Source: a virus
DNA length: 64,000 nt
Virus record (IMG/VR): IMGVR_UViG_3300043438_001221
Strand: one strand, 5' to 3'
Shown one piece after another: positions 1,721 to 33,562 of the stretch; within the stretch, counting starts at the first letter, position 1, and every line of letters begins with the position of its first letter. Below the pieces are notes generated by a model. It was not told the origin of the DNA. It searched no databases and saw nothing but the letters and a program-made list of their open reading frames with translations. The position numbers and the translations under genes were made by a program.

Positions 1721-4228
1721 TCATTCTCCAAACAAGTCGTCCAATTCTACTGTCAGATTTTCCGATGGTTTTCTCAATTTCCAACCCACTGCTTCATAAA
1801 ATCTCTCAATCGCAGCATAAAACACTTTAGCAAACATTTTCTCATAGTCAACCGTGAAAATGTTATCAAATTCTTCTGGCCAATCACCCTTGAATCCGAT
1901 CATATCCAAATTGTATTTGTTGGGCTTCTTAACATACACCATGCGAACCTTATCCCCTGATTTGAATTTCTCGTATTTGGAACCCCATCCATTCTGTTCC
2001 ATGATCATGTCATGAAAATAAGCAGCTTTCAGATGAGATGGCATACCTTTCACAGTGTTCATACCGTTACATCTAGCCGAATATTCGGAAAAATTATTCA
2101 TACCCGAAATCTTGGAAATCTCAGCAATGGATAGGTTCTTGAATTCCTCATAAGCCTCGTTGAACATGTCGTTGGTTTCCTTCAGCGATTGGGAAATGAT
2201 CATATGTTCAATAACTTTCTTAACATATGGCTTTACCTTCTTGGGCATCGTGGTTTTCACCACATCAACTCCCCGATACTTGAACTTATCCACCTTGGTT
2301 CCCTCATCATCCAGAACATGGAGGACATAATATTTCTTACCAATGAAGATTCCGCTATCACAGATGGTTTCCCGCTTGAACACGAAACGGGGATCAGTGC
2401 TTCTCAGGGCTTTTCCAGCCCAATCGGTAATCCGTTTATTAATATAATCCTCAATATCCTCACACAATTCATAAAATTCATCCGATTTTGAATCCAAACC
2501 AAACATTTTAAGGGAAACAAAAAAGCTATCAGTATCCCCGTAAACACAACTTTGTTGCAAAATTGATTCCGATATATTGGGAAATTTTTCCCGCACGTAA
2601 TCCTGAAACAAATCATTGCTCTTCTTGATTACCGCTTGTCCTGTCAATGTCACCGATGTTCCAATATCCTCATCCCCAAGGGGTGCATATTTGTTGAGCA
2701 TATAACCATAGAGGGAATTGAGATGGATTTTATAAGCGTATTGGATGCTATCAAATTTCTGTTCTCCCTCTTTATCTCCATTCTTACGACATTCCATCAT
2801 CTTGTTTTTCATCTCCTTCCGCTTGGTGTAAAGATTGTCTAGGAATTCGGGAACCAGACCACGTTTCTTCTGAGAGAAGAGAAATCCTGCTTTAGTTAAT
2901 GCCGCTTGCTCCTCATCAATAAATTTCTTGAAGTTCTCAGGAGTCATCTCAAACAACCTACCCGATACATGATGGATTTTCACCTTATCTCCATCCTTCT
3001 CAACCCTTCCGATTTTCGTTTCGGGGGAGAGATTTAAAGAAATCATCACAGATGGGTATAGGGAGTTGGCATCAAAGGATACGATGTTCTCCGCAAAGCC
3101 TATTTTTGGCTCTGCTACATATCCACCGGGAGCGCGGTAGTCCGTCACAGGACGAATGAACGTAGGAATGTATTCCCCCCGCATACGGGCGCGTATGGCG
3201 ATTGCGCCATTCATTGCTGGGAGTGTTCTGATCGCGCTTTCCAGATCACACAATCCGGTATATGCGAGGAATCTGATAAGATTGATATATCCTTTTTTCT
3301 GATCAAGCCCTACCACGATTTCCACATCCCGTATGCAATAATCGGTGAAAGTGTGCCAATCATTTTTCGCCAGTTCCCATAGATTACCATCATGTGCAAC
3401 CTTATTGATTCCCAATTCAACCTCCCCAATATTATCCAATTTATACGATTCCTGTTTCTCCAGATTGAACTTCTGATAAATCACATAATAATCAAGAATT
3501 GATAGCCCTTCAATCACATACTCCTTGGAAGGCATCCCAAATTTACCATTTGGATTGGTCTTTTCATAAATCCTACCCGTTGGGGACAGCTTATCAGCCC
3601 ATTCCTTTCCCAATTGGAAAGTGATTCGATTCACGAGATAAGGAACGTCAAATGCTGCTATATTCCACCCACTCAACACATCAAAACTTTCCTTTTGGAA
3701 GTATTTGATGAATGTTTTGAGCAAATCTTCTTCGGATTTACACCATGTATATTTCACATCATCTCTAATGGTGTGGAAGTTCTTCAACCCAAAGACATGA
3801 TACATCTTGGATTCAGAATTATAAATTGTAATCAAATTAATCACCGATTCCGCCAATTCTGGTTCTGGAAATTTATCAGAAGATGGACATTCCAAATCCA
3901 GATATGCCACTTTTAAAGGATGTTGGGAGAAATTAACATCCTCGCAAACCGACCAGTAATTATCAATCAGGAATTGCTGATATGGTGGCAGGTTTTCATA
4001 AATCCGCTTGATATTACTATCCTTGACAAAATTATTCCTGTCGTATGAACTGTTGAAACATTTCTTCTCTAATAAAGTTCCGTATATAGACTTTTTATCC
4101 CCTTTTTTATTCTCCAATAAAATATAAGGTTTAAAATCGTGTTCTTCCCGAATACGTTCCCCATTTTTATCCCACGAGAATAAATGGATTTTACGTGATT
4201 TGTTATCATATACACAATTTCTATACAT
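1721..4228 (-). CDS. 43: family B DNA polymerase (T4 gp43-like)
   Basis: Exo motifs DLE and GWNIAAFDVPY; pol motifs SFDANSLYPS, KIHLNSLYG, YGDTDS, KKYY. Confidence 0.97.
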   Translation of the reverse strand: MYRNCVYDNKSRKIHLFSWDKNGERIREEHDFKPYILLENKKGDKKSIYGTLLEKKCFNSSYDRNNFVKDSNIKRIYENLPPYQQFLIDNYWSVCEDVNFSQHPLKVAYLDLECPSSDKFPEPELAESVINLITIYNSESKMYHVFGLKNFHTIRDDVKYTWCKSEEDLLKTFIKYFQKESFDVLSGWNIAAFDVPYLVNRITFQLGKEWADKLSPTGRIYEKTNPNGKFGMPSKEYVIEGLSILDYYVIYQKFNLEKQESYKLDNIGEVELGINKVAHDGNLWELAKNDWHTFTDYCIRDVEIVVGLDQKKGYINLIRFLAYTGLCDLESAIRTLPAMNGAIAIRARMRGEYIPTFIRPVTDYRAPGGYVAEPKIGFAENIVSFDANSLYPSVMISLNLSPETKIGRVEKDGDKVKIHHVSGRLFEMTPENFKKFIDEEQAALTKAGFLFSQKKRGLVPEFLDNLYTKRKEMKNKMMECRKNGDKEGEQKFDSIQYAYKIHLNSLYGYMLNKYAPLGDEDIGTSVTLTGQAVIKKSNDLFQDYVREKFPNISESILQQSCVYGDTDSFFVSLKMFGLDSKSDEFYELCEDIEDYINKRITDWAGKALRSTDPRFVFKRETICDSGIFIGKKYYVLHVLDDEGTKVDKFKYRGVDVVKTTMPKKVKPYVKKVIEHMIISQSLKETNDMFNEAYEEFKNLSIAEISKISGMNNFSEYSARCNGMNTVKGMPSHLKAAYFHDMIMEQNGWGSKYEKFKSGDKVRMVYVKKPNKYNLDMIGFKGDWPEEFDNIFTVDYEKMFAKVFYAAIERFYEAVGWKLRKPSENLTVELDDLFGE

Positions 4229-4244: not shown

Positions 4245-4526
4245 ATGGATAATTATTTCAAAGACTTGGGCATAATTTACGAAAATCTTGATATGGAATC
4301 GTCATACGATGATTATGACCCACAAACAGAAAAAGTCAAGGCAGAGGCGCATGAACTTTGTTCATATATTGAAAAATATCTAAAGGGGACTATCAATTTT
4401 TACCAAAACAATAAAAAAGCCTTTTTCGATAATCCTTCGGATATGAACAGCTTTGAAGAATTGAAAGGCATGTTTGAAAGACTTCGCCCAACGCTCGCTC
4501 AATATTCCCAATTTGGGAAGAATTAA
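4245..4526 (+). CDS. putative internal head protein with leader MDNYFKDLGIIYE
   Basis: Lone plus-strand gene in a minus block with its own late promoter; leader nearly identical to that of 46996..47409. Confidence 0.6.
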   Translation: MDNYFKDLGIIYENLDMESSYDDYDPQTEKVKAEAHELCSYIEKYLKGTINFYQNNKKAFFDNPSDMNSFEELKGMFERLRPTLAQYSQFGKN

Positions 4527-5719
4527 TCGTTCCAATATCTCATAAATCTACGAGATGGATCACCATGATTCGTATTCAACGCTTCCATGAAAGTTCCAAT
4601 ATTCTCCGGTCTTTCAAGGAATCTGCTTTCTCCAAGCTTTCTAAGCTCTGGAACCAACTTGTAATACTTGGAACGGTTCTTCCAATTCAGAATTGCCTCC
4701 ACTTTCTGTTCCAAATCGAGAGAATCCGTGAATTTTAGGAAATCAGGAGCATCCTGATATGTCACCATATCCTGAACCATGCAGGGAATACCCAAGCAAG
4801 CTCCCTCAATGTATTTGATATCTGATTTTGACCTGTTGAATGGGATATCCTTCAAGGGCGCAAGAAGTAATTGGGGATTCAAAGAAGCAATGAATTTGGG
4901 GTAATCCATCAGAGATTGCCAAGGATGGAATTCGATTTCCTTACTTTCAATATATGGATGCAGGGGAGGAGGATAAGCACCAATGAAAATGAACTGATAC
5001 TTGGAGCGGTTATCAATGATGAATTTCAACACATGGGAAAAATCATCCTGTTGTCCCGTGACATTCTTTACATCAAAGTGCGCTCCCGATCCTGAATAGA
5101 GGATGCGTGGTTTCTTCTTATTCCTATCAAAGTTCTGGATAACCTTACCATAATTATAGTGATGACCAATCCACCATTCGGGAGGGAAGTTGGGAATCAC
5201 GGAAGTCTTTTGTTGTCCCGTCTTCTCAATGAAGAGATCGCGCATGTATTTACATGTCACTGTCACCTCATCCGCCATGTTCATCATATCCACGCAGTTC
5301 TGACGAATCTCATCGGAAGCAAATGCGTGTTTATAGGAATTGTAATCGGGAATCTCTTCATGGAAGACCACATCATCCACCTCATAGATGATCTTAAACC
5401 CGCATTCGGGTTGGATACTCTTGAGGAATTTAAAGAATTCTTTCTGTTGAGTCGAACATTGGCGTTGGAGCTTGATGGTTTTCACATCCCGATACCAATC
5501 CTTGTTGAGAACCATTTTACGAATGGTCGTGGAATCCCCATGACCCCCCAAATTAACCTGCATTTCGGGCCATAAGATACGCCACGCAGCGCAGCCACTA
5601 ATATCCGCTGAAAAGTTTAGATATGTATTACCCTTTTTCGGAGGCTCTTGGGTGGTATTTTTTACCGCATAGGGGTTCTTAGCAAAAGGAGATGATGGGA
5701 AGGGCGACTTTTGAAACAT
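4523..5719 (-). CDS. GT-B fold glycosyltransferase (GT4-like)
   Basis: IYEVDD, ADEVTVT, VIPN, YSGSGAH, LAPLKDIPFNRSKSDIKYIEGACLGIP; start chosen from TAAATC-N5-ATG. Confidence 0.75.
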   Translation of the reverse strand: MFQKSPFPSSPFAKNPYAVKNTTQEPPKKGNTYLNFSADISGCAAWRILWPEMQVNLGGHGDSTTIRKMVLNKDWYRDVKTIKLQRQCSTQQKEFFKFLKSIQPECGFKIIYEVDDVVFHEEIPDYNSYKHAFASDEIRQNCVDMMNMADEVTVTCKYMRDLFIEKTGQQKTSVIPNFPPEWWIGHHYNYGKVIQNFDRNKKKPRILYSGSGAHFDVKNVTGQQDDFSHVLKFIIDNRSKYQFIFIGAYPPPLHPYIESKEIEFHPWQSLMDYPKFIASLNPQLLLAPLKDIPFNRSKSDIKYIEGACLGIPCMVQDMVTYQDAPDFLKFTDSLDLEQKVEAILNWKNRSKYYKLVPELRKLGESRFLERPENIGTFMEALNTNHGDPSRRFMRYWND

Positions 5720-5741
5720 GAAGAGATTTATCCATGTTTTT

Positions 5742-6620
5742 TCATTTGTCAATTGTTATTCTTCTAGTCACTCCACCCTCTTTCTCCAAGAACACCGTCT
5801 CACCGTTGATATGTTTTTCAATCTCTTTTCTGTGGGAAATCGCATAAAATGAAAGATTGTGTTTATCGATCCGTTGTTTTACAAGTTGAACCAGAAGATC
5901 AAATCCATGACCATCAAATGCTGAATCGAAAAATTCGTCCCCGAATTCCACATTGGATGATACTCCAGAAATCTTCCGTTTCAAATCCTTGAATGCCCAC
6001 GCACACGCAAGATCAACAGTCCTACGCTCCCCACCACTCAGATTCCAGTAAGAAATCTCCTTACCTTTGTCATTGGAAAGCTGCTCATCAAAATATTCAT
6101 CAAATTTACAACGAATGGACATGCCAAGATCGTTGATGTATTGCTGGATGCTTGCGTTCATCATGGAAAGGAGTCTCTTCACCACAAAGCTACGGACACC
6201 TTCTTCCCCAAGAACGAATTTACAGATTTCATAATCTTCCGATTTCTGTTTGAGTAATAGGAAATTGTTGCGTTCCGTATCATGTCTCTCTTGAGTCTTG
6301 ATGATGTTTTCTTCAAATGCTGGTTTCGGTAATTCATCCAACTTTAAATTATCCAGAGAGTCCTTGTATTGCTTGAGACTGTTTTCCAGACCTTCTAATT
6401 TTTGTTTGGTGACTTTCGCTTCATTAATTTGATCTTGAAATTCTGATACCTTTCGCTGAACCTTTTCTTTTTTAGATTGAAGTTGAGATTTTTGTTCCTT
6501 CAATTCATCAATTTCCTCGACAATATCATCCAATTCGGATTGATATTGTTCCTTCATTTTCTCCAAATGTTCCACATGGGTATGGGGAATATCTTGGAGG
6601 CATTTGTCACATTTAATCAT
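5742..6620 (-). CDS. 46: gp46/SbcC/Rad50-like ATPase, C-terminal half (zinc hook, return coil, ABC signature)
   Basis: Starts MIKCDKC (CxxC hook); LSGGE signature, DEFFDS Walker B/D-loop, ISH H-loop. Confidence 0.88.
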   Translation of the reverse strand: MIKCDKCLQDIPHTHVEHLEKMKEQYQSELDDIVEEIDELKEQKSQLQSKKEKVQRKVSEFQDQINEAKVTKQKLEGLENSLKQYKDSLDNLKLDELPKPAFEENIIKTQERHDTERNNFLLLKQKSEDYEICKFVLGEEGVRSFVVKRLLSMMNASIQQYINDLGMSIRCKFDEYFDEQLSNDKGKEISYWNLSGGERRTVDLACAWAFKDLKRKISGVSSNVEFGDEFFDSAFDGHGFDLLVQLVKQRIDKHNLSFYAISHRKEIEKHINGETVFLEKEGGVTRRITIDK

Positions 6621-6921
6621 TTTTCAAAATTTCATTTAAATCTTTTCTTTCGGTTTTACAAATAGCGAAAACACGATCAAGCATTCTATTAGCACCGCGT
6701 AGCAATTTAGGCGTTCTAAAATCTTCAATTATGTTAGATAATTTAGACATTCGGACATAATCACCGTCTTTTGTTTGGCGATTTAAAACATTTAGAAAAT
6801 CTTCAATAGATGTCAACTTACCCCAATCCAACGAATAAGGAATTTGTGTAAAATGAGATTGATGGTTTATCCAGTGTTCGACCCTACTTTTTTCAATAAC
6901 GAATATTGGTTGTTTTTTCAT
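6613..6921 (-). CDS. hypothetical protein inserted inside gene 46
   Basis: 102-aa ORF overlapping both gp46 halves (ATGA at its start, ATGATTAA at its end). Confidence 0.6.
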   Translation of the reverse strand: MKKQPIFVIEKSRVEHWINHQSHFTQIPYSLDWGKLTSIEDFLNVLNRQTKDGDYVRMSKLSNIIEDFRTPKLLRGANRMLDRVFAICKTERKDLNEILKND

Positions 6922-7835
6922 ATAACTTTCTCAATTTGTTCGATTTCTTTCGCCTTCAACTTTTTCAAAGTTTCCTTGGATGAAATCGCATCATTGATAT
7001 GACCAATTTTACCATCCAGCTTTCGGCAAGCATCGTCCCACTTCTCTTTCTCCAATTGTATCGCTAAAACATCCGTTATGGATGTTTTAGCGATCTTTTC
7101 CTCTGTTTCATCAATCTTTTCTTGAATATCCTTGCGCTTTTGTTCAAGAATAGCATCCCTCTCTTGGACTTTCTTCAGATAATCCGCTTGCTGATCATTC
7201 AGCGTTTCCAGAGTGTGATTAAGTTCTTCCAATCTTGCAGTGGAAATGTTCATCTCTCCCTTATTATCACGAATAAGAGTCTTCAATTCGCTGCTCATCT
7301 TACCAAAGACTTCCAGAGAGAAAATATCGTTGATGAATTTACGCTTCTCCTCTGGTTTCTTCGCCATGAAGGGGATGTTATCCGAAAGAGATAGAATGTC
7401 ACAGCTACGGCAGATGACGGGATTGGAACCAATCAGATCACAGATGAATTTATCAGTGTTGGCGATGGAATCCTTAGTGATGTCTTCTTCGCCTCTCAGA
7501 AGAGTCACAGTGCTTGGTTTGACTTGCCGTTTGATCGTGTAAGTCTGAACGTCTTGCTCCGTCTCCACATCAAACGTCAGTTCAATGGCACCCTTTCCCT
7601 TGGTGATGTTGTTGATGATGAAATCCTTTTTGATTTCACGGATGGTTTTACCAAATAATGCGTAATAGAAAAGTTCCGCCATTACGGATTTTCCAATTCC
7701 GTTCACACGATCAGGATTATCAATATTCTTACCAGTGATCAAATTGAAACCGGATTGGAAATCTACGGAAATCTGATCATTTCCAACACTGAGGAAATTC
7801 TGACCTTTAAGAGTGAGATATTTTATACGTCTCAC
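6918..7835 (-). CDS. 46: gp46/SbcC/Rad50-like ATPase, N-terminal half
   Basis: NFLSVGN, Walker A ITGKN...NGIGKS, YYALFGK, followed by coiled coil ending at a stop. Confidence 0.9.
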   Translation of the reverse strand: MRRIKYLTLKGQNFLSVGNDQISVDFQSGFNLITGKNIDNPDRVNGIGKSVMAELFYYALFGKTIREIKKDFIINNITKGKGAIELTFDVETEQDVQTYTIKRQVKPSTVTLLRGEEDITKDSIANTDKFICDLIGSNPVICRSCDILSLSDNIPFMAKKPEEKRKFINDIFSLEVFGKMSSELKTLIRDNKGEMNISTARLEELNHTLETLNDQQADYLKKVQERDAILEQKRKDIQEKIDETEEKIAKTSITDVLAIQLEKEKWDDACRKLDGKIGHINDAISSKETLKKLKAKEIEQIEKVI

Positions 7836-8546: not shown

Positions 8547-8779
8547 ACCGTTCCAAGTCCCTGTCCACAAATAGCACATCCTCTAAAATCATACAACCAC
8601 CCATATGCGTCTTCAACAATAGAATGTCCACATTTACCATTTTTATGATTTTCCAATTCTTTTTCAATATCTTCTATCGTAGCATCTCTGATCTTACTTG
8701 CCAAAACACATTGACCAATACGCTCAGTCACCTCTTCGACAAAAACCTTTTTCAAATCAAAATCACTTACACTTCTCAT
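8543..8779 (-). CDS. hypothetical protein with Cys/His cluster
   Basis: CGH...CAICG; overlaps the gp47 stop. Confidence 0.55.
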   Translation of the reverse strand: MRSVSDFDLKKVFVEEVTERIGQCVLASKIRDATIEDIEKELENHKNGKCGHSIVEDAYGWLYDFRGCAICGQGLGTV

Positions 8780-9782
8780 ATAATTCATCATTGATTTTCT
8801 TCACTCTTACCAATTGCTCATCATCCAGCTTGAGTTGTTCGTAGAACTCATCAAACATTCCAACAATATCAATCGAATCGACTTGTTCAACATCTCCGAT
8901 TGTCTTTGTCGCCACGTTGTATTCCGTGGCGAGACGGAAAGGAGCAAAGTTGGACAGGTAAATCTTGAACTTCTCCACCTTATCATCTTCCACATCTTTG
9001 TCAATGATCAGCTTGATGATGTTTCCTTCCACATCCTCCTTGGAATAATCCTTGATCTTGGATAAGGGTATCTTGATGAATTCTGGAGACACCGTATTTT
9101 TCACAAATTCCACAGAATCGTCTTCCAGATTCAGGATGTGATACCCCTTGTCATCTCCACAATCATTGAAATCGTGATGAAAGGTATTACCGATGTATCG
9201 GATCGTTCCTTCGTTGTATTTCTTGATACTCTTGGTGTGAAAATGACCAGACCAAACATTGGTGGTTCGGGACGCTAGGAAATCCATGACTTGGAATCCA
9301 TGATCACAGACCTTGTAATTGTTCATCTGAAATGTCTGGATTTCAAAATGACCGAAGATGTGGTCAAATTTACCATTCGGTAATTCGTGATTCCATGGAA
9401 CGAATAATAATTTCTTACCAAACGCATCCAATTCTAAATTCTGATCAATGATGGTGATGTTATCATGTCCCTTGAGAAATCCCAAACTATGGACATCAGA
9501 ACGGTTCTTGTAGAACGCATCGTGATTACCTATCAGCATCAGGAGGTTGAAGTCCTTGAACTTGGCGATCAATTCTGATGCAACGTGGATTGTCTGAACG
9601 GAGATTTCCGAACGGTTATGGAAGAAATCACCAAGGAAAAAGATATCGGAAATCTTCTTCTTTTTCAGATCAGCGACAATCCAATCCGCCCATTTCAAGG
9701 CGATTTCATGCCACTCTGTTGAATTTCCGTAAAGACCCAAGTGAAGGTCTGAGAATAAGGCCACTTTTGGTTTTTTAATCAT
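8763..9782 (-). CDS. 47: gp47/SbcD/Mre11-like nuclease
   Basis: Metallophosphoesterase motifs SDLHLG, LGDFFH, GNHD, GHFE, SGHFH. Confidence 0.92.
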   Translation of the reverse strand: MIKKPKVALFSDLHLGLYGNSTEWHEIALKWADWIVADLKKKKISDIFFLGDFFHNRSEISVQTIHVASELIAKFKDFNLLMLIGNHDAFYKNRSDVHSLGFLKGHDNITIIDQNLELDAFGKKLLFVPWNHELPNGKFDHIFGHFEIQTFQMNNYKVCDHGFQVMDFLASRTTNVWSGHFHTKSIKKYNEGTIRYIGNTFHHDFNDCGDDKGYHILNLEDDSVEFVKNTVSPEFIKIPLSKIKDYSKEDVEGNIIKLIIDKDVEDDKVEKFKIYLSNFAPFRLATEYNVATKTIGDVEQVDSIDIVGMFDEFYEQLKLDDEQLVRVKKINDELYEKCK

Positions 9783-10233
9783 CGTCGTATTCATCTCCCT
9801 CCAAATTGGGCTTAACATATACATGTCCCATGGAATCTGGTCCACTCATGCTTTCCATATATACCATCTCCTTGTAATCCTCCAGACCCTTGTGTTGTCC
9901 GTTTTCCTTCTTGATGCGGTTGCAGAAAGCGTTCCAAGCAATGCGGTTGAAATATGAGAACGGGTTGAAGTCCGATTCAATGTTATATAGCTTCTTCTCC
10001 AAAGCTGCATACATTTTCAGAACTGCGTCCCCGACCATCTCATCTTTCCAAGAGCGGGAATATCGAATGAAATTAATCTTGTATGACAATCCCTCTGCAA
10101 TGTTCATTAGATGAACCCCCAATTCGTTCAGATTCGCCCCCGTCTCATAGTATTCCACCAATTGCTGTTTGAACAGCTTGGAATTGACATAATGGGGTTT
10201 CTTGGCATTTTTTTCGTTAATCATAATTTTCAT
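9775..10233 (-). CDS. 55: late-transcription sigma factor gp55
   Basis: HYVNSK...IAEGLSYKINFIRYS..WKDEMVGDA...NPFSYFNRIAWNAFCNRIKKE is the typical gp55 pattern. Confidence 0.92.
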   Translation of the reverse strand: MKIMINEKNAKKPHYVNSKLFKQQLVEYYETGANLNELGVHLMNIAEGLSYKINFIRYSRSWKDEMVGDAVLKMYAALEKKLYNIESDFNPFSYFNRIAWNAFCNRIKKENGQHKGLEDYKEMVYMESMSGPDSMGHVYVKPNLEGDEYDDD

Positions 10234-10484
10234 GGATAATTTGTATATTCCCACCATTCTTCCTTTGGGTATTCTTTTTTAGGTGCTTCTACAATTTTTC
10301 CAGTATAAGATTTATCATAAATTATATCGACATGTTTTTGATCAAATGATACATGTCGTCCGTAAATTTTTCCACTATAAAAAGGATTTAAAGACCAAAA
10401 TCCATCATCCTCATTAATGATTTCAAATTCCGTTCCCGCCAAATAATAATCGGTATCCTTTTTTAGTCTCCCGTATTTACTCAC
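10230..10484 (-). CDS. hypothetical protein
   Basis: 84-aa ORF with 4-nt overlaps on both sides. Confidence 0.6.
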   Translation of the reverse strand: MSKYGRLKKDTDYYLAGTEFEIINEDDGFWSLNPFYSGKIYGRHVSFDQKHVDIIYDKSYTGKIVEAPKKEYPKEEWWEYTNYP

Positions 10485-11899
10485 AGCGACACCTCCTTAA
10501 ATTTATATACGATCTGTTCCTTATCATAAATCTCCTGTCTGTGTAACGCATGGGACATGGAATACTTCAAATTATCCGAAACATCAATGATGCGTAGCTT
10601 GGATTTGTTATCATGCAACCGGAGTCCCCGACCAATGGATTGTACAACCCGAATGAATGACTTCCCAAGTCCCGCAAATATGATATTGGGGAGATTCTTG
10701 ATATTGATACCAGTTGAAAAGATGGATGCCATTGCAATACAAATGATATTATCATTCTTTTCCATCATGTCAATTATTTTTTTGCGTTCTTCGACTTCCA
10801 TTTCGCCCTTAACAAAGAACACTCTCTTATCAGATCGGGAAGACATAAGAGATAATAACATATCTCCGTGATCAAGATGATTAACCATGACAAGGACATT
10901 ACCACTGATTGAATCAGCCAATTTAGCGATGATTTGATTTCTTTTTTCGTGTTTGTATAGATATTCCAGTTCATCTTTATATTTTAATTTTTTACCTTTA
11001 ATTGGGGGGTGATTGAGTTGCAGGGCGGTGATTTCCACATCAGAAATATATCCCTCATCCCTAAGTTCCTTGGATTTCTTTTCATATATGACGGAGCCAA
11101 ATGTTCCGATTGTTTTCCATTGGTCAATGGATTTATCGGAAAGCGTCCCCGTGAATCCGAATTTGTTGGGGGTGTGGATTTTGTTTATAATCTTGGATAT
11201 GCCAGCGGTATTATTAATTTTATGCGCTTCATCACATATGAGAAGATTCACGCTCAAAATCCAAGGATTATTGGTGAATTGAGCAAGAAGGTTCTCGGAA
11301 TTGCATATCACAACTTGGGTATCTTGTGGTTCGTTACCTCCAGTCCATCCTGAATACGTGAATGTCACACCATAATCCTCGAAATCACCCTGTAATTGGT
11401 TCACAAGAGACAATCCGGGAACTACTATGAGACATTTGAAAGTATCATTTGATACGTTTCTCATATAATTTTCAACGAGTAGAGCTTGAGCTAACGATTT
11501 CCCGGCAGATGTCGCCAATAGAAATGTCCCGAATCCTTTTTTTAGTCCAGCAATTACCGAATCCTTCTGATAATAACGAGCATCATATTTCAGTTCATTC
11601 CAAAATTCTCCAATTTCCACCCCACATTTCAATCTCTTTTTAAAAGCATCTGTTAGGGAAATGTCGGTGATCTGGTTATCGCGGAGATATTTCAGAATCT
11701 CCCCATGAAAACCAAAATCAAACAATCCGGTGGGGGTAATGGCATACTTACGATCCTTCACGAAACGGTTGCCTTTCTTTTTGGCGAAGAATGCCCCATC
11801 GTTCTTGACTGAAAAATGACTACGAATCATCCCAAGGGTGTCAGAATCAGTGATGATCTGTCCTTGTCGCTTGGATGATTTGTAGTCAAAAGTTATCAT
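10481..11899 (-). CDS. uvsW: UvsW SF2 DNA helicase
   Basis: RYYQ, ATSAGKS, DEAH, GFTGT, STGINIKNL, QSIGRGLR. Confidence 0.93.
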   Translation of the reverse strand: MITFDYKSSKRQGQIITDSDTLGMIRSHFSVKNDGAFFAKKKGNRFVKDRKYAITPTGLFDFGFHGEILKYLRDNQITDISLTDAFKKRLKCGVEIGEFWNELKYDARYYQKDSVIAGLKKGFGTFLLATSAGKSLAQALLVENYMRNVSNDTFKCLIVVPGLSLVNQLQGDFEDYGVTFTYSGWTGGNEPQDTQVVICNSENLLAQFTNNPWILSVNLLICDEAHKINNTAGISKIINKIHTPNKFGFTGTLSDKSIDQWKTIGTFGSVIYEKKSKELRDEGYISDVEITALQLNHPPIKGKKLKYKDELEYLYKHEKRNQIIAKLADSISGNVLVMVNHLDHGDMLLSLMSSRSDKRVFFVKGEMEVEERKKIIDMMEKNDNIICIAMASIFSTGINIKNLPNIIFAGLGKSFIRVVQSIGRGLRLHDNKSKLRIIDVSDNLKYSMSHALHRQEIYDKEQIVYKFKEVSL

Positions 11900-28043: not shown

Positions 28044-31000
28044 ATGAGATTGTTTAGCGAAGAGGTGAAAACCACCTCGTCTAATTCACCTCTGAATATC
28101 ATCCAAGTTGCAAATTTCTCAGAAATTTTCTTCGGTGTTCTAGAGATTGAAATAAACGAGAAAAAATATCCGGTTGAAGAAGTTGTGAAGCACGGGGGAA
28201 ATCCCGTGGTGTTGCTTCCTATCGTGATTGAGGGGGTTGAAAAAGAATATCCATTCCTTCTGTTGAAAGGCAAGCAGGAGATTTTCTTCAACGAAAATAA
28301 TACGGAGATTCCTGTTTCCGATGAGGAAATTCTTGAGGAATCCACGGAAATCGATAGGGAGCAGATTCTCCTTGATATTGAAAAATTGAAAAAGGATTCC
28401 GTTAGAAAGGCACAGGAAGAGCTTTCTCGTCATTTGGAAATCGTCAAGGAAAAAACCAAACGGGAAAAACAAAAGAAAGAAAAAGCTCTCAGGTTGTATC
28501 TGGAGTCCGCAAGGGAAAATCTTGTTGATGAATTTACAACAATCTCCCAGCGGATCAAAAAAGAGGTTTTCGATAAGAATGATGAGAAATATTCGGAAAT
28601 TCGGGAAACGATTGATAACAGGATTGAGGAGATACGCAATTCCCTTGGGGAATCCTTGAGCAAGAATTTCCAGAAATCTTCCCAAATAATTGATAAGTCC
28701 ATCAAGCAATTGGTCAAGGAATTATGGGAAAAGAATATCAATCCAAGGGTTGATAAAGAACTTCATAATATTGCAACCGAAATCCATGAGAAGGTTTCGG
28801 AGATCGACAAGAATCTCAATTCCAAGCTGGATAAAAAAGCTGATCGTTCTTTGGTTGAAGGTGTTAGCAAGGAAATCGATATCATTCGGGATGCCAACAT
28901 TGAGCTTAACAATTCCCTGAACAAAGGCGTTCAGAAAGCATTGTCCCGCGTGGGGAACGTTGATAAGAAGATCGTGGAAATTTCCGAGAAATTTGATAGG
29001 AAAATCTCGGAAACGGAACAAGAAGTCACAGAATATTTCAATGAAAAGTTGACCTTGATTAAGGAAGAAACCATTGATATCACAGATGAAGCTAGAAAAT
29101 ATTTCCAAAATCTGATTCAAGAAAGCAGGGATGGATTGCTTTCTGAAATCCGCACGATCAAGAATGAGAAACCCGTTGAATACATTCTGGAAACCAAAAA
29201 ATCCGGCAAGGTTGTCAAGGATTGGGATTCGATTGAGAAAGAATGGAACACCAAAATCCACGACAAGATTGAAAATGTAAAGACCGATCTTAGGAAATAT
29301 GTGACGGTCTATGCCTCTGGTGGTGGAACCAATGCCACTCAATACCAAGATGGGGGAACGATGAATGGCGACCTGAACGTGACGGGTGCGTATCTTTCCG
29401 CTGGTGTCAATTTATTGGATATCTTTGGTGGTGGAGGTGGTGGATTGACAAATCCTGTGGAAGTGTTGGAATTTGACACCGCCTATGTATCAACTGGTAG
29501 CGAACCCGCTGGTAGCATGTATTGGAACCCAACGGATGAAACGGTTGATTTGGTTCATGATGGGGCTGTCCAACAAATAGGGCAGGAAATGTTCATCAAA
29601 GTCCGCAATGCTTCGGGATCAACTATTCAAAATGGAACGCCCGTTTATTTTGATGGGAGGCAAGGGAACCGCCCCAAAATCTATCCCGCGCAATCCGATT
29701 TGCATTCGACTTCTGCCGTAATGGGGATAACCACCCAAGACATATCCGATGGAGACGATGGATTTATCACCTCTTTTGGTTATGTGCGCCAAATCAAAAC
29801 CAATTATTCGGGGGCTGGAGATTGGGGAACCACTTGGAATGAAGGGGACAACCTTTATGTATCAAAAACCATTACTGGCCAATTAACGAATGTTGAGCCT
29901 TCCGCCCCCCATCATTCAGATGTGGTTGGCCAAGTTGGGATCGTTGGAGCTTTGGGGGTTGGTTCTATTTTCGTAAGCATTCGTCACCATCAAGCTCTGG
30001 AAGATTTATCCGATGTTAATGGCACAGCTTTAACAACAACGGGACAAGTCCCAACATGGAACAATTCGTTAAGTGCTTTTGATTTCAATTACAATATCAC
30101 GGATTATCTCCCTTTAAGTGGTGGCACATTATCTGGTAATCTTTCAGCAAATTCCGTTACGGTTACGGCGGCAGAGATTGGGCGCGATTTGGTTGATGCT
30201 GATGCCGTGGTATTGAATGGTGGTAGAAGCCTTTTATCAAGATTCTGGACTTATGTAAAATCCAAACTTGATCTTGGACAAACAGTTGGCGGCTCGTGGG
30301 CGTTTAGTTCCACCACCAGACCTACAAGCAGCGGGACAGGAACACCCGACGCCAATAGCTTGATTACTTTTGCGGATGCTTTAACTCAACTTGATAGTGT
30401 TATTGGATGGAATCTTATACCATTTATCAACTCTATACAGTCCACTTTCAACGTCGGTGGTTCAAATTCTCTTACACTAAATGCTGTCCATATCCAACTT
30501 ACATCTGGTGGGACTTCTGTAAGTGCTACTGCTGGATATTCATTCAACAGCGCAAATGCTCAAGGTATTTTACCATATAAAGGTAGTGAAACATTGATTC
30601 ATTGGTCAAAAAGATTAAAAGTTCGACTCGGTATTGCAATGGCTTCTTTTGATGGTGATGCAATTGGATGGTTTTGGGTTGGTTGTGATTCTACCGCTCC
30701 TGTTGGTAATGCACCCCCAAATACTTTGCGAGGTTATGGATTAAGGTTTGATAACAGCGGCGGAACGGTTCGTATCACCCCTGTTACCCATGATGGAACA
30801 AATTACATTTACGGAACCCCTGTTACCCATACTCAAACCGTATATACGATGGATATGTATAATGGCACAATGAATGTTTTTAATGCTGATAATACATTGG
30901 TGGCTACTGTTTCTGGTGGTAGGTCAATTGATTCCGCAACCAATAGATCGGTTCAACTTCATTGCCAAACCACATTAAATAATGGTGTTGGCAACAACTA

Positions 31001-31049
31001 TTTCCGTTTTCGAGTAAACCGTATGGAATTTAAATTCCTAGAATCTTAA
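28044..31049 (+). CDS. large virion fibre-like protein (coiled-coil N-half, beta-rich G/T/S C-half)
   Basis: Late promoter TAAATA-N6; about 420 aa charged coiled coil then GGTMNGDLNV and YLPLSGGTLSG fibre motifs plus a capsid-cement-like segment. Confidence 0.65.
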   Translation: MRLFSEEVKTTSSNSPLNIIQVANFSEIFFGVLEIEINEKKYPVEEVVKHGGNPVVLLPIVIEGVEKEYPFLLLKGKQEIFFNENNTEIPVSDEEILEESTEIDREQILLDIEKLKKDSVRKAQEELSRHLEIVKEKTKREKQKKEKALRLYLESARENLVDEFTTISQRIKKEVFDKNDEKYSEIRETIDNRIEEIRNSLGESLSKNFQKSSQIIDKSIKQLVKELWEKNINPRVDKELHNIATEIHEKVSEIDKNLNSKLDKKADRSLVEGVSKEIDIIRDANIELNNSLNKGVQKALSRVGNVDKKIVEISEKFDRKISETEQEVTEYFNEKLTLIKEETIDITDEARKYFQNLIQESRDGLLSEIRTIKNEKPVEYILETKKSGKVVKDWDSIEKEWNTKIHDKIENVKTDLRKYVTVYASGGGTNATQYQDGGTMNGDLNVTGAYLSAGVNLLDIFGGGGGGLTNPVEVLEFDTAYVSTGSEPAGSMYWNPTDETVDLVHDGAVQQIGQEMFIKVRNASGSTIQNGTPVYFDGRQGNRPKIYPAQSDLHSTSAVMGITTQDISDGDDGFITSFGYVRQIKTNYSGAGDWGTTWNEGDNLYVSKTITGQLTNVEPSAPHHSDVVGQVGIVGALGVGSIFVSIRHHQALEDLSDVNGTALTTTGQVPTWNNSLSAFDFNYNITDYLPLSGGTLSGNLSANSVTVTAAEIGRDLVDADAVVLNGGRSLLSRFWTYVKSKLDLGQTVGGSWAFSSTTRPTSSGTGTPDANSLITFADALTQLDSVIGWNLIPFINSIQSTFNVGGSNSLTLNAVHIQLTSGGTSVSATAGYSFNSANAQGILPYKGSETLIHWSKRLKVRLGIAMASFDGDAIGWFWVGCDSTAPVGNAPPNTLRGYGLRFDNSGGTVRITPVTHDGTNYIYGTPVTHTQTVYTMDMYNGTMNVFNADNTLVATVSGGRSIDSATNRSVQLHCQTTLNNGVGNNYFRFRVNRMEFKFLES

Positions 31050-31909: not shown

Positions 31910-31942
31910 TGTATTTATGAGGATGTGGCATTAAGTAATAAT

Positions 31943-33562
31943 ATGCCGAACAAAATAAATACCGAAATTTTCATAGAAAGGTCGAAAAATATACACGGCG
32001 ATAGATATCAATATAATTGTTCGGAATATATAAATAGCCAAACGAAAATAAGCGTGCGATGCCCGATCCATGGTATTTTCACTCAAAAACCACAAGACCA
32101 TATGAATGGGAGGGGTTGTGAAAAATGTGGGAAATTGATATGGGAAAATAAAGATAATCTCGAAAAAAGGTTTAATATTTTTGCTGAAAATGCGAATAGA
32201 ATACACAATTTTAGATATAAATATATTTTAGAGTCGTATAATGGTACGCATAGAAAGGGTGATATTATTTGTCCAATACATGGAAAATTTACTCAATTAT
32301 TAACAAATCATCTTAGCGGATCAGGTTGTGTTAAGTGTAGTAAAGAATCCTATAGAAATAAAAGAACATTCACCGATAAAATTTTTACAGAAAAAGCCAT
32401 TGAAAAACACGGCAATTTTTATAATTATTCTTTAATTAATTACACAGATTCCCAATCTAAATTAGAAATTATTTGTCCAATACATGGCAAATTTACACAG
32501 AAAGCAAATGCACATTTAAACGGTGCTGGGTGTGGGAAATGTGGAAAAATTAAAAAATCTAACAATAAAAGTAAAAATTATGATTGGTATGCCAAATGTG
32601 TCAAATCACATGGAAATAAATATAATTATTCTATGGTGGATTATGTGAAAAACACGTCCCCCGTTAAAATTATTTGCCATAAACATGGAATGTTTATGCA
32701 GACTTTACATAGTCATATAAAAGGTCGGGGGTGTCCTTCATGCGGAGTGACAAATTCCGATATGGAAAACTTTGTGGAAGAAGTGTTGAAAGATAATTCA
32801 ATTGATTATGTTAAAAATGATTGGAGCGTTCTCAAAAATTTGGAGTTAGATTTTTATATACCAAGTATGAAAATTGCGATTGAGTGTAATGGTAATTACT
32901 GGCATTCTGAGACATCTGGTAATAAAGATAAAGATTATCATCTTGATAAAACAGAAAAATGCCTAGGTGTCGGTATTAAATTATTACACATTTTTGAAGA
33001 TGAGTATATAGAGAAAAGGGAAATAATTAAATGTAAAATATTAAACGTTTTAAATTTAACCAAATATAAAATTTGGGCTGAAGAATGTTCTATTGAACGG
33101 ATATCTGAAGATATTAAAGATAAATTTTTAAACAAATATCATATACAAGGAAGTGATAAATCTGATTACATGTATGGACTATTCTATCGAGATAGAATCG
33201 TTGCGGTTATGACGTTTTGTGGTGCAAGTAATTCAAAAAATAGAGTATTTGATTTTTCTAGATATTCATCATTGGGGAATTTTGATATTGTTGGTGGTGT
33301 TGATAAGTTATTAACATTTTTTAAAGTGGTGACAAACCCATCAAAAATTATTTTGAGTGTGGATAGGAGATTTTCAGACGGTGATCTTTATGAAAAAATT
33401 GGATTTGAAAGAGTTTCCACCACACCACCCGATTATTGGTATCTAATTAGAAATGGTAATTACTTCACTAGAAAATATAAATCGGAATTGGATAATATGA
33501 AAACCTACAATTTTGATAGAATATGGGACTGTGGTATGATTAATTATGAGATGTTTTGTTGA
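31943..33562 (+). mobile_element. free-standing homing endonuclease with four Zn-binding CxxHG repeats (DUF723-like) and a PD-(D/E)xK domain
   Basis: Four repeats C(P/H)xHGxFxQxxxxHxxGxGCxxC, then ELDFYIP..IAIECNGNYWH and RIWDCG; AT-rich; TAAGTA-N5-ATG. Confidence 0.82.

Follow-up and report, generated by a model that had tools for sequence, protein, structure and literature searches.

A gp46 gene in two pieces: a probable two-chain Rad50 split beside the zinc hook in an uncultivated T4-like lake phage

In the 64-kb window analyzed here (the whole 64,000-nt stretch of IMG/VR record IMGVR_UViG_3300043438_001221, an uncultivated T4-like phage from lake water), the gene for the Rad50/SbcC-type ATPase gp46 is present as two open reading frames (ORFs) of 305 and 292 amino acids (aa), separated by a gap that carries a 102-aa ORF. 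We consider it very probable that the gp46 of this phage is a natural case of genes in pieces, a two-chain Rad50 held together by its coiled coil. An earlier note on this DNA, made from the letters alone, had proposed a naturally two-chain Rad50 that is broken at its apex and reassembles via the coiled coil. Support for this proposal now comes from the position of the break in relatives, from the ratio of nonsynonymous to synonymous substitution rates (dN/dS), from a complete relative in which no second gp46 was found, and from a model of the complex. The features of the split gene are as follows.

6918-7835, minus strand: gp46 N-half, 305 aa, with the N-terminal ATPase lobe and the ascending coil; C-terminal end EQIEKVI, then TGA
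7686-7703, minus strand: Walker A N-G-I-G-K-S, N-half residues 45-50
6918-6921, minus strand: ATGA overlap of the N-half stop and the start of the 102-aa ORF
6613-6921, minus strand: cargo gene for a 102-aa helical protein
6613-6620, minus strand: ATGATTAA overlap of the 102-aa ORF stop and the C-half start
5742-6620, minus strand: gp46 C-half, 292 aa, starting MIKCDKC, with the zinc hook, the descending coil and the C-terminal ATPase lobe
6600-6611, minus strand: CxxC zinc-hook motif, C4-D-K-C7 of the C-half
6027-6041, minus strand: ABC signature L-S-G-G-E, C-half residues 194-198
5934-5939, minus strand: Walker B D-E, C-half residues 228-229, with the H-loop His263 further along
8763-9845, minus strand: gp47 (Mre11/SbcD-type nuclease), the partner of gp46, upstream and transcribed in the same direction (phrog_100, SbcD-like, E 3.9e-67)

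The N-half stop lies at 6918-6920 and the C-half ATG at 6618-6620; the two halves are in the same frame, and 6621-6920 is exactly 300 nt. On all these points, as on the two protein ends and the coupling of the 102-aa ORF through its two overlaps, the sequence agrees with what the earlier note had described.

Identity of the halves and position of the break

Both halves match the phage SbcC-like family phrog_77, the N-half at profile positions 293-562 (E 2.4e-42) and the C-half at positions 629-950 (E 2e-38). The N-half also matches Pfam AAA_23 (E 9.9e-12), and its profile matches solved Rad50 ATPases (3aux, E 3.6e-8); residues 2-61 of the C-half give a marginal profile match to the solved Rad50 hook fragment 6zff (E 9.8e-4). 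Across 17 relatives, N45, G48, K49 and S50 of Walker A, the hook cysteines C4 and C7, and S195, G196 and E198 (signature), D228 and E229 (Walker B) and H263 (H-loop) of the C-half are invariant. Of the traits that define the Rad50 family, the Walker A lobe, the C-terminal lobe, the CxxC apex and a linked gp47 gene are thus all present, zinc binding being predicted from the sequence. The trait that is missing is a single chain folding back on itself, for every split relative retains the stop and the new ATG. In the phage record collection, the region had no megablast match, the closest gp46 proteins were <30% identical, and tblastn of the 102-aa ORF gave no match. Double ('x2') annotations near two matches in that collection (H7 and H16) proved to be merely gp47 beside an intact gp46.

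Relatives were taken from IMG/VR and Joint Genome Institute (JGI) metagenome contigs, all from lake or fresh water. In 15 IMG/VR loci of 72-86% identity, as in every more distant locus, the gene is in one piece (~598 aa, KEIDKFSSVEDGIQCDKCLQ). In the window and 13 other IMG/VR loci it is split at the identical place, reading KEIEQIEKVI-stop and then M-IKCDKCLQ. Alignment with the intact gp46 of close relatives, which the earlier note had suggested for defining the insertion point, located it at VED/GIQC: because the intact (GAA GAT / GGT ATT CAG TGT) and split (ATA TGA ... ATG ATT AAA TGT) forms are colinear codon by codon, the break falls between the D and G of VED/GIQCDKC. The stop replaces the D codon and the initiator Met replaces the G codon; the break stands three residues ahead of the first cysteine of the hook. 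The motifs E[IV]..V/A-I-stop and M-I-K-C-D-K-C are common to all split relatives, the N-half of each ends in an ATGA junction, and at the position of GGT in intact alleles every split allele has an ATG of its own. Over its last ~8 residues the N-half has been remodelled, with EQIEKVI in place of DKFSSVED, and we infer from the residues involved that a Ser/Gly-rich turn was swapped for helix-favoring ones.

No convincing case of an independent split was found among distant homologs of the C-half. Of the candidates, P0096 proved to be a fragment at a contig edge, P0052 comes from scaffolds of low coverage that contain Ns, and P0120 begins with a non-Met residue and is probably a fragment too. 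The Bacillus Herelleviridae matches to the C-half are intact genes of ~630 aa.

Selection on the halves and a model of their assembly

Among six diverged split lineages, the N-half had a dN/dS of 0.056-0.10 and the C-half one of 0.055-0.135, at synonymous divergence (dS) of 0.2 to ~2. Such low ratios at this depth of divergence indicate that both halves were long kept by selection after the split. Relaxed selection was found in neither half, and the motifs are kept, in line with the statement of the earlier note that neither half decays.

The check for a second, intact gp46 was made on complete or near-complete split relatives. In L009 (207,489 bp, with terminal repeats, 100% complete), the phrog_77 matches are its two gp46 halves only. 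In two further split relatives, 87-89% complete and one of them with the same 102-aa cargo, phrog_77 matches only at the split gp46 locus, and a phrog_77 search revealed no further gp46 copy within the 64-kb window.

Modeling of the N-half and C-half as a complex, also suggested in the earlier note, gave an interaction prediction score from aligned errors (ipSAE) of 0.79, versus 0.00 for the best of three controls; 58 of 80 solved complexes reach this ipSAE mark, as do 2 of 110 mismatched pairs. Agreement between runs extended to at least 96% of contacts, and the partner had a predicted local distance difference test (pLDDT) score of 80. In the model the coils pair along their whole length through heptad-spaced contacts that run from N-half residues 164-305 to C-half residues 19-150, with further contacts in the ATPase head, and C-half residues 1-18, including the CxxC, are left as the apex. 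The model shows likeness to the canonical fold, not binding, and its pass may owe something to model memory, since Rad50 structures have been solved.

The gap as a variable slot

Each gap was counted as running from the stop of the N-half up to the last base ahead of the C-half ATG, and seven slot states were read.

Window and L003 group: 300 nt, 102-aa ORF
L008/L009: 328 nt, 108-aa ORF, unrelated
L012: 466 nt, 156-aa GNAT acetyltransferase
L011/L054: 209 nt, 70 codons in frame into the C-half
L067: 232 nt, 78-aa ORF
L070: 623 nt, 206-aa ORF
L013: 45 nt, spacer only

Comparison of these alleles shows that the gap, to judge from its coding content, behaves as a cargo slot, holding unrelated small genes or almost nothing. 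No match to HNH, GIY-YIG or any other nuclease family was found among the cargo ORFs tested. The acetyltransferase (L012:4915-5385) matches GNAT families above the Pfam cut-offs (E 6e-9 to 2e-8) and a PHROG acetyltransferase (E 3e-7), and start/stop overlaps couple it to both gp46 halves. In L011:4915-5988 (the same contig as L054), the 70 codons begin at an ATGA overlap and meet no stop before the C-half; because they run on in this way, the C-chain of this relative may bear a 70-residue extension ahead of the hook, or it may start at an internal ATG.

The 102-aa ORF of the window is a real gene under purifying selection, as its dN/dS of 0.08-0.31 indicates, and has only 7 close homologs among 5.8 billion proteins. 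The insert is not specific to the break site: homologs lie between gp47 and gp46 in L037 and L041, and upstream of gp47 in L038-L040, all with an intact gp46. Because its homologs occupy other slots in these relatives, the ORF is one of the small shuffling ORFs of the region rather than a companion of the break. It had no Pfam, PHROG or PADLOC match and no usable match in the ESM Atlas. An AlphaFold2 model built from a 7-row alignment describes a small helical protein (pLDDT 85.7), and folding from the single sequence was poor (pLDDT 41). Structure searches with the model returned generic helical matches only, the best having E 0.5 in the PDB and E 0.064 in BFVD, both with Foldseek, and Z 5.8 in the VIA-wide search.

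Origin of the split and alternative explanations

Contigs of independent lake runs, X2 (3066 nt) and X4 (442 nt), span both junctions with zero differences from the window. A further contig of run X4 joins position 6611 to 6943 through 34 other letters, the reverse complement of which encodes DKFSSVEDGIQ. Because these letters encode the intact junction, the contig represents the intact allele of a co-occurring strain as DNA, not a spliced product; split and intact gp46 co-occur in this one lake run. On the whole-gene tree the split state needs 3 changes, some of them across well-supported branches, and on DNA trees of four sub-regions, the topologies of which are mutually discordant, it needs 4 or 5. 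Because all split alleles share the break and the remodelled junction, we favor a reading of these trees in which the split probably arose once, with frequent recombination afterwards within a mosaic population.

As to what made the break, we regard it as possible, if rather unlikely, that the split is the footprint of a homing endonuclease. A free-standing homing endonuclease gene, comparable to mobE in Aeh1 nrdA or mobA in T4 39/60, would have created the split and later been lost or replaced, the present cargo genes being secondary occupants. This is the documented route to split genes in T4-type phages (PMC2988022). The ~8 remodelled codons on the N side are as expected from imprecise insertion or co-conversion, and the junction moves among gp46 backgrounds. 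In addition, an intact-gp46 relative carries a GIY-YIG/NUMOD3 homing-endonuclease-like gene just downstream of the uvsW-type helicase (L037:449-1186), which suggests that such mobile elements are active in this gene block. Set against this is the lack of any match to a nuclease family among the cargo ORFs described above, together with the precedent of gene 43 in phage 44RR, where a non-coding spacer forms the split and no endonuclease gene is involved (PMC2988022). The endonuclease account concerns origin, and is compatible with a two-chain Rad50 as the present function.

A gene that close relatives have in one stretch is interrupted here by a stop codon, as would be seen if an insertion had inactivated gp46 and the halves were decaying, with the phage using the SbcCD or RecBCD of its host or doing without. 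We consider such a broken gene very unlikely. Both halves have dN/dS of ~0.06-0.14 with synonymous divergence near saturation, all catalytic motifs and both hook cysteines are invariant, the split has been maintained in at least six diverged lineages, which between them show seven different slot states, and all of these lineages keep the C-half start codon.

Even less credible is recoding of the two halves into one gp46 chain of ~600 aa, whether by a ribosome hop like that of T4 gene 60, by removal of an intron or through a split or contiguous intein. The halves do share a frame and stand 300 nt apart, with an Ile codon before the stop and another after the restart, and T4 gene 60 likewise has a stop inside a coding sequence of a T4-type phage, with translation resuming in a downstream frame. 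In the frame of gp46, however, the 300 nt of the window contain 8 stops, and the same break occurs in relatives with gaps of 45-623 nt that occupy all three frames. For these two reasons the in-frame distance is a coincidence: of the 'in-frame 300-nt insert' of the earlier note, the length and the frame stand, and the meaning given to the frame does not. Every split allele moreover has its own ATG in place of GGT, and the insert ORF is itself under purifying selection. Further, specific grounds speak against the ribosomal bypass and the RNA-level removal that the earlier note had offered as alternatives. The would-be take-off codon ATA and landing codon ATT differ and are not conserved (the N-half of L009, for example, ends ACA AAA TGA), and the gap is 300 nt rather than the 50 nt of gene 60, codes for a conserved protein and varies in length among relatives. 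No Rfam intron family was matched at E up to 1, and the 45-nt spacer variant is too short to self-splice. As for inteins, which occur in split form in fractured genes (PMC2677866), neither half contains additional residues: the N-half aligns to intact relatives over 1-304 and the C-half from residue 2, which leaves no room for intein halves.

An assembly artefact or chimera joining two strains, for which the metagenome source, its co-occurring strains and the intact allele in run X4 might be cited, is practically negligible, since the X2 and X4 contigs bridge both junctions without differences and the identical layout recurs in different samples, on many contigs of IMG/VR and JGI that reach 178 kb in length.

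We therefore retain a two-chain Rad50 as the best explanation, and set against it the following points. A single origin requires much recombination, since 3-5 changes of state have to be assumed on every tree, and the split may have been lost or gained repeatedly (by reversion or re-creation). The complex model is itself a prediction, made for a family whose structures have been solved. No RNA run among the listed runs contains the sequence, and no clear ribosome-binding site precedes the C-half, so that expression of the C-half would rest on translational coupling or on leaderless-like initiation.

Proposed mechanism

The anatomy of the alleles shows that an ancestral one-piece gene (~598 aa, KEIDKFSSVEDGIQCDKC) was broken between the D and G codons, the D codon becoming a stop and the G codon the ATG of a second gene. 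The N-chain carries Walker A and the ascending coil; on the C-chain are the entire CxxC hook and the descending coil, together with the signature, Walker B and the H-loop. From the stop/start overlaps, the N-half, the cargo ORF and the C-half are probably translated as a coupled chain. The two chains would associate via their antiparallel coiled coil and the shared beta-sheet of the ATPase head, and once assembled would act with gp47 like an ordinary gp46. Zinc-hook dimerization would need the C-chains only. The split junction appears to recombine freely among otherwise mosaic gp46 backgrounds, as the discordant trees in part show.

Comparison with known systems

The split gp46 has in common with phage T4 gp46/gp47 and bacterial SbcCD the ABC-ATPase head of N- and C-lobes, the antiparallel coiled coil and the CxxC hook. 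A further common trait is the Mre11-type gene upstream, in an operon-like block between uvsW/gp55 and DNA polymerase. It differs from both in that the ATPase is made as two polypeptides, with an unrelated gene between the coding parts. Structural work on archaeal and bacterial Rad50 has used two-chain constructs of the catalytic domains, in which N and C fragments expressed apart reassemble into an active ATPase head; these are laboratory truncations that lack the full coil and hook, whereas the arms here are full-length and the break is natural.

The nearest known kind of case is that of the genes in pieces of T4-type phages, known from nrdA of Aeh1 (mobE), T4 gene 39/60 (mobA), and gene 43 of the Aeromonas phages 25 (seg) and 44RR (non-coding spacer), and split nrdA of Aeh1 and split gene 43 of phage 25 give active enzymes (PMC2988022). 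As in these cases, an essential gene of replication or recombination that is contiguous in relatives is present here as two conserved cistrons that must reassemble, with a stop/start overlap, and, as with gene 43 of the Aeromonas phages, the content of the gap varies between relatives. By contrast, none of the seven slot states holds a homing endonuclease (in this respect gp46 resembles gene 43 of 44RR), and the break lies at the apex of a coiled coil rather than within a globular domain. In that review gp46 is not reported as split (PMC2988022), and our literature search on split Rad50, SbcC or gp46 found no paper describing such a case.

Another parallel is in the cultured Bacillus phage 0305phi8-36 (L076:1406-5442, NC_009760 146905-150941). 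There gp8 ('exonuclease', 769 aa) ends 18 residues past CPTC, and the C-terminal ATPase lobe is in a separate gene, gp5, with gp7 and gp6 between. A 2011 paper on this phage remarked no more than that one segment of the ATPase 'was not observed' (PMC3175470). The gp8/gp6/gp5 arrangement (PMC3175470) shares with the lake phages a natural Rad50-type ATPase in separate genes with a break beside the hook; it differs in belonging to an unrelated lineage, in being cut after the hook and into more than two pieces, and in having its N part fused to Mre11. Together, the lake clade and 0305phi8-36 indicate that breaks beside the Rad50 hook recur in unrelated phages, on either side of the CxxC.

A broader proposition, which we offer tentatively and as falling somewhat short of an even chance, is that the apex of the Rad50 arm beside the hook is a generally tolerated break that phages have reused, before the hook in this lake clade and after it in 0305phi8-36. 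The split allele would be a long-lived polymorphism alongside the intact one, since its translationally coupled landing pad would let accessory genes, possibly for anti-defence, ride on an essential early gene, and the two-chain enzyme would be fully active. If so, covalent continuity between the ascending coil and the hook would not be needed for Mre11-Rad50 function. Models of Rad50 and SMC-like proteins picture each arm as a single chain that turns back at the hook, and the transmission of hook and coil movement to the ATPase head is debated. A natural Rad50 cut three residues before its hook, and under strong selection, offers a ready test of the covalent link between ascending coil and hook, and a two-chain system would be convenient for labeling or engineering each coil separately. 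In the split gp46 a well-known enzyme takes on a new architecture, and the known phage habit of keeping genes in pieces gains a further case. With gp46, the short list of essential T4-type genes existing in pieces grows by one, and here the break point doubles as a swap-in slot for small accessory genes.

Gene neighborhood and other features

The gene order on the minus strand is uvsW-type helicase, gp55, gp47, three small ORFs, the 305-aa, 102-aa and 292-aa ORFs, a glycosyltransferase-like ORF and DNA polymerase. The larger neighbors other than gp47 are listed here.

10481-11899, minus strand: uvsW-type helicase
9775-10257, minus strand: gp55-type late sigma factor
4523-5752, minus strand: glycosyltransferase-like ORF, 409 aa (phrog_7162, E 3e-20; no Pfam match)
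1721-4228, minus strand: family-B DNA polymerase

The glycosyltransferase-like ORF (4523-5752) has a TTG start that overlaps the end of the C-half by 11 nt. A scan for promoters and terminators gave counts at the level of shuffled sequence, with none within the insert. Elsewhere in the window, a 545-aa ORF at 31925-33562 strongly matches a PHROG family labelled HNH/homing endonuclease (phrog_559, E 1e-124), and it is adjoined by a 1001-aa ORF (28044-31049) without any PHROG match. Within the coiled-coil coding part of the N-half there is a near-perfect inverted repeat at 7060-7094, with arms of 15-16 bp and a short loop. Only 6-13 of 16 positions pair there in relatives, which suggests that the repeat was strengthened specifically in this phage.

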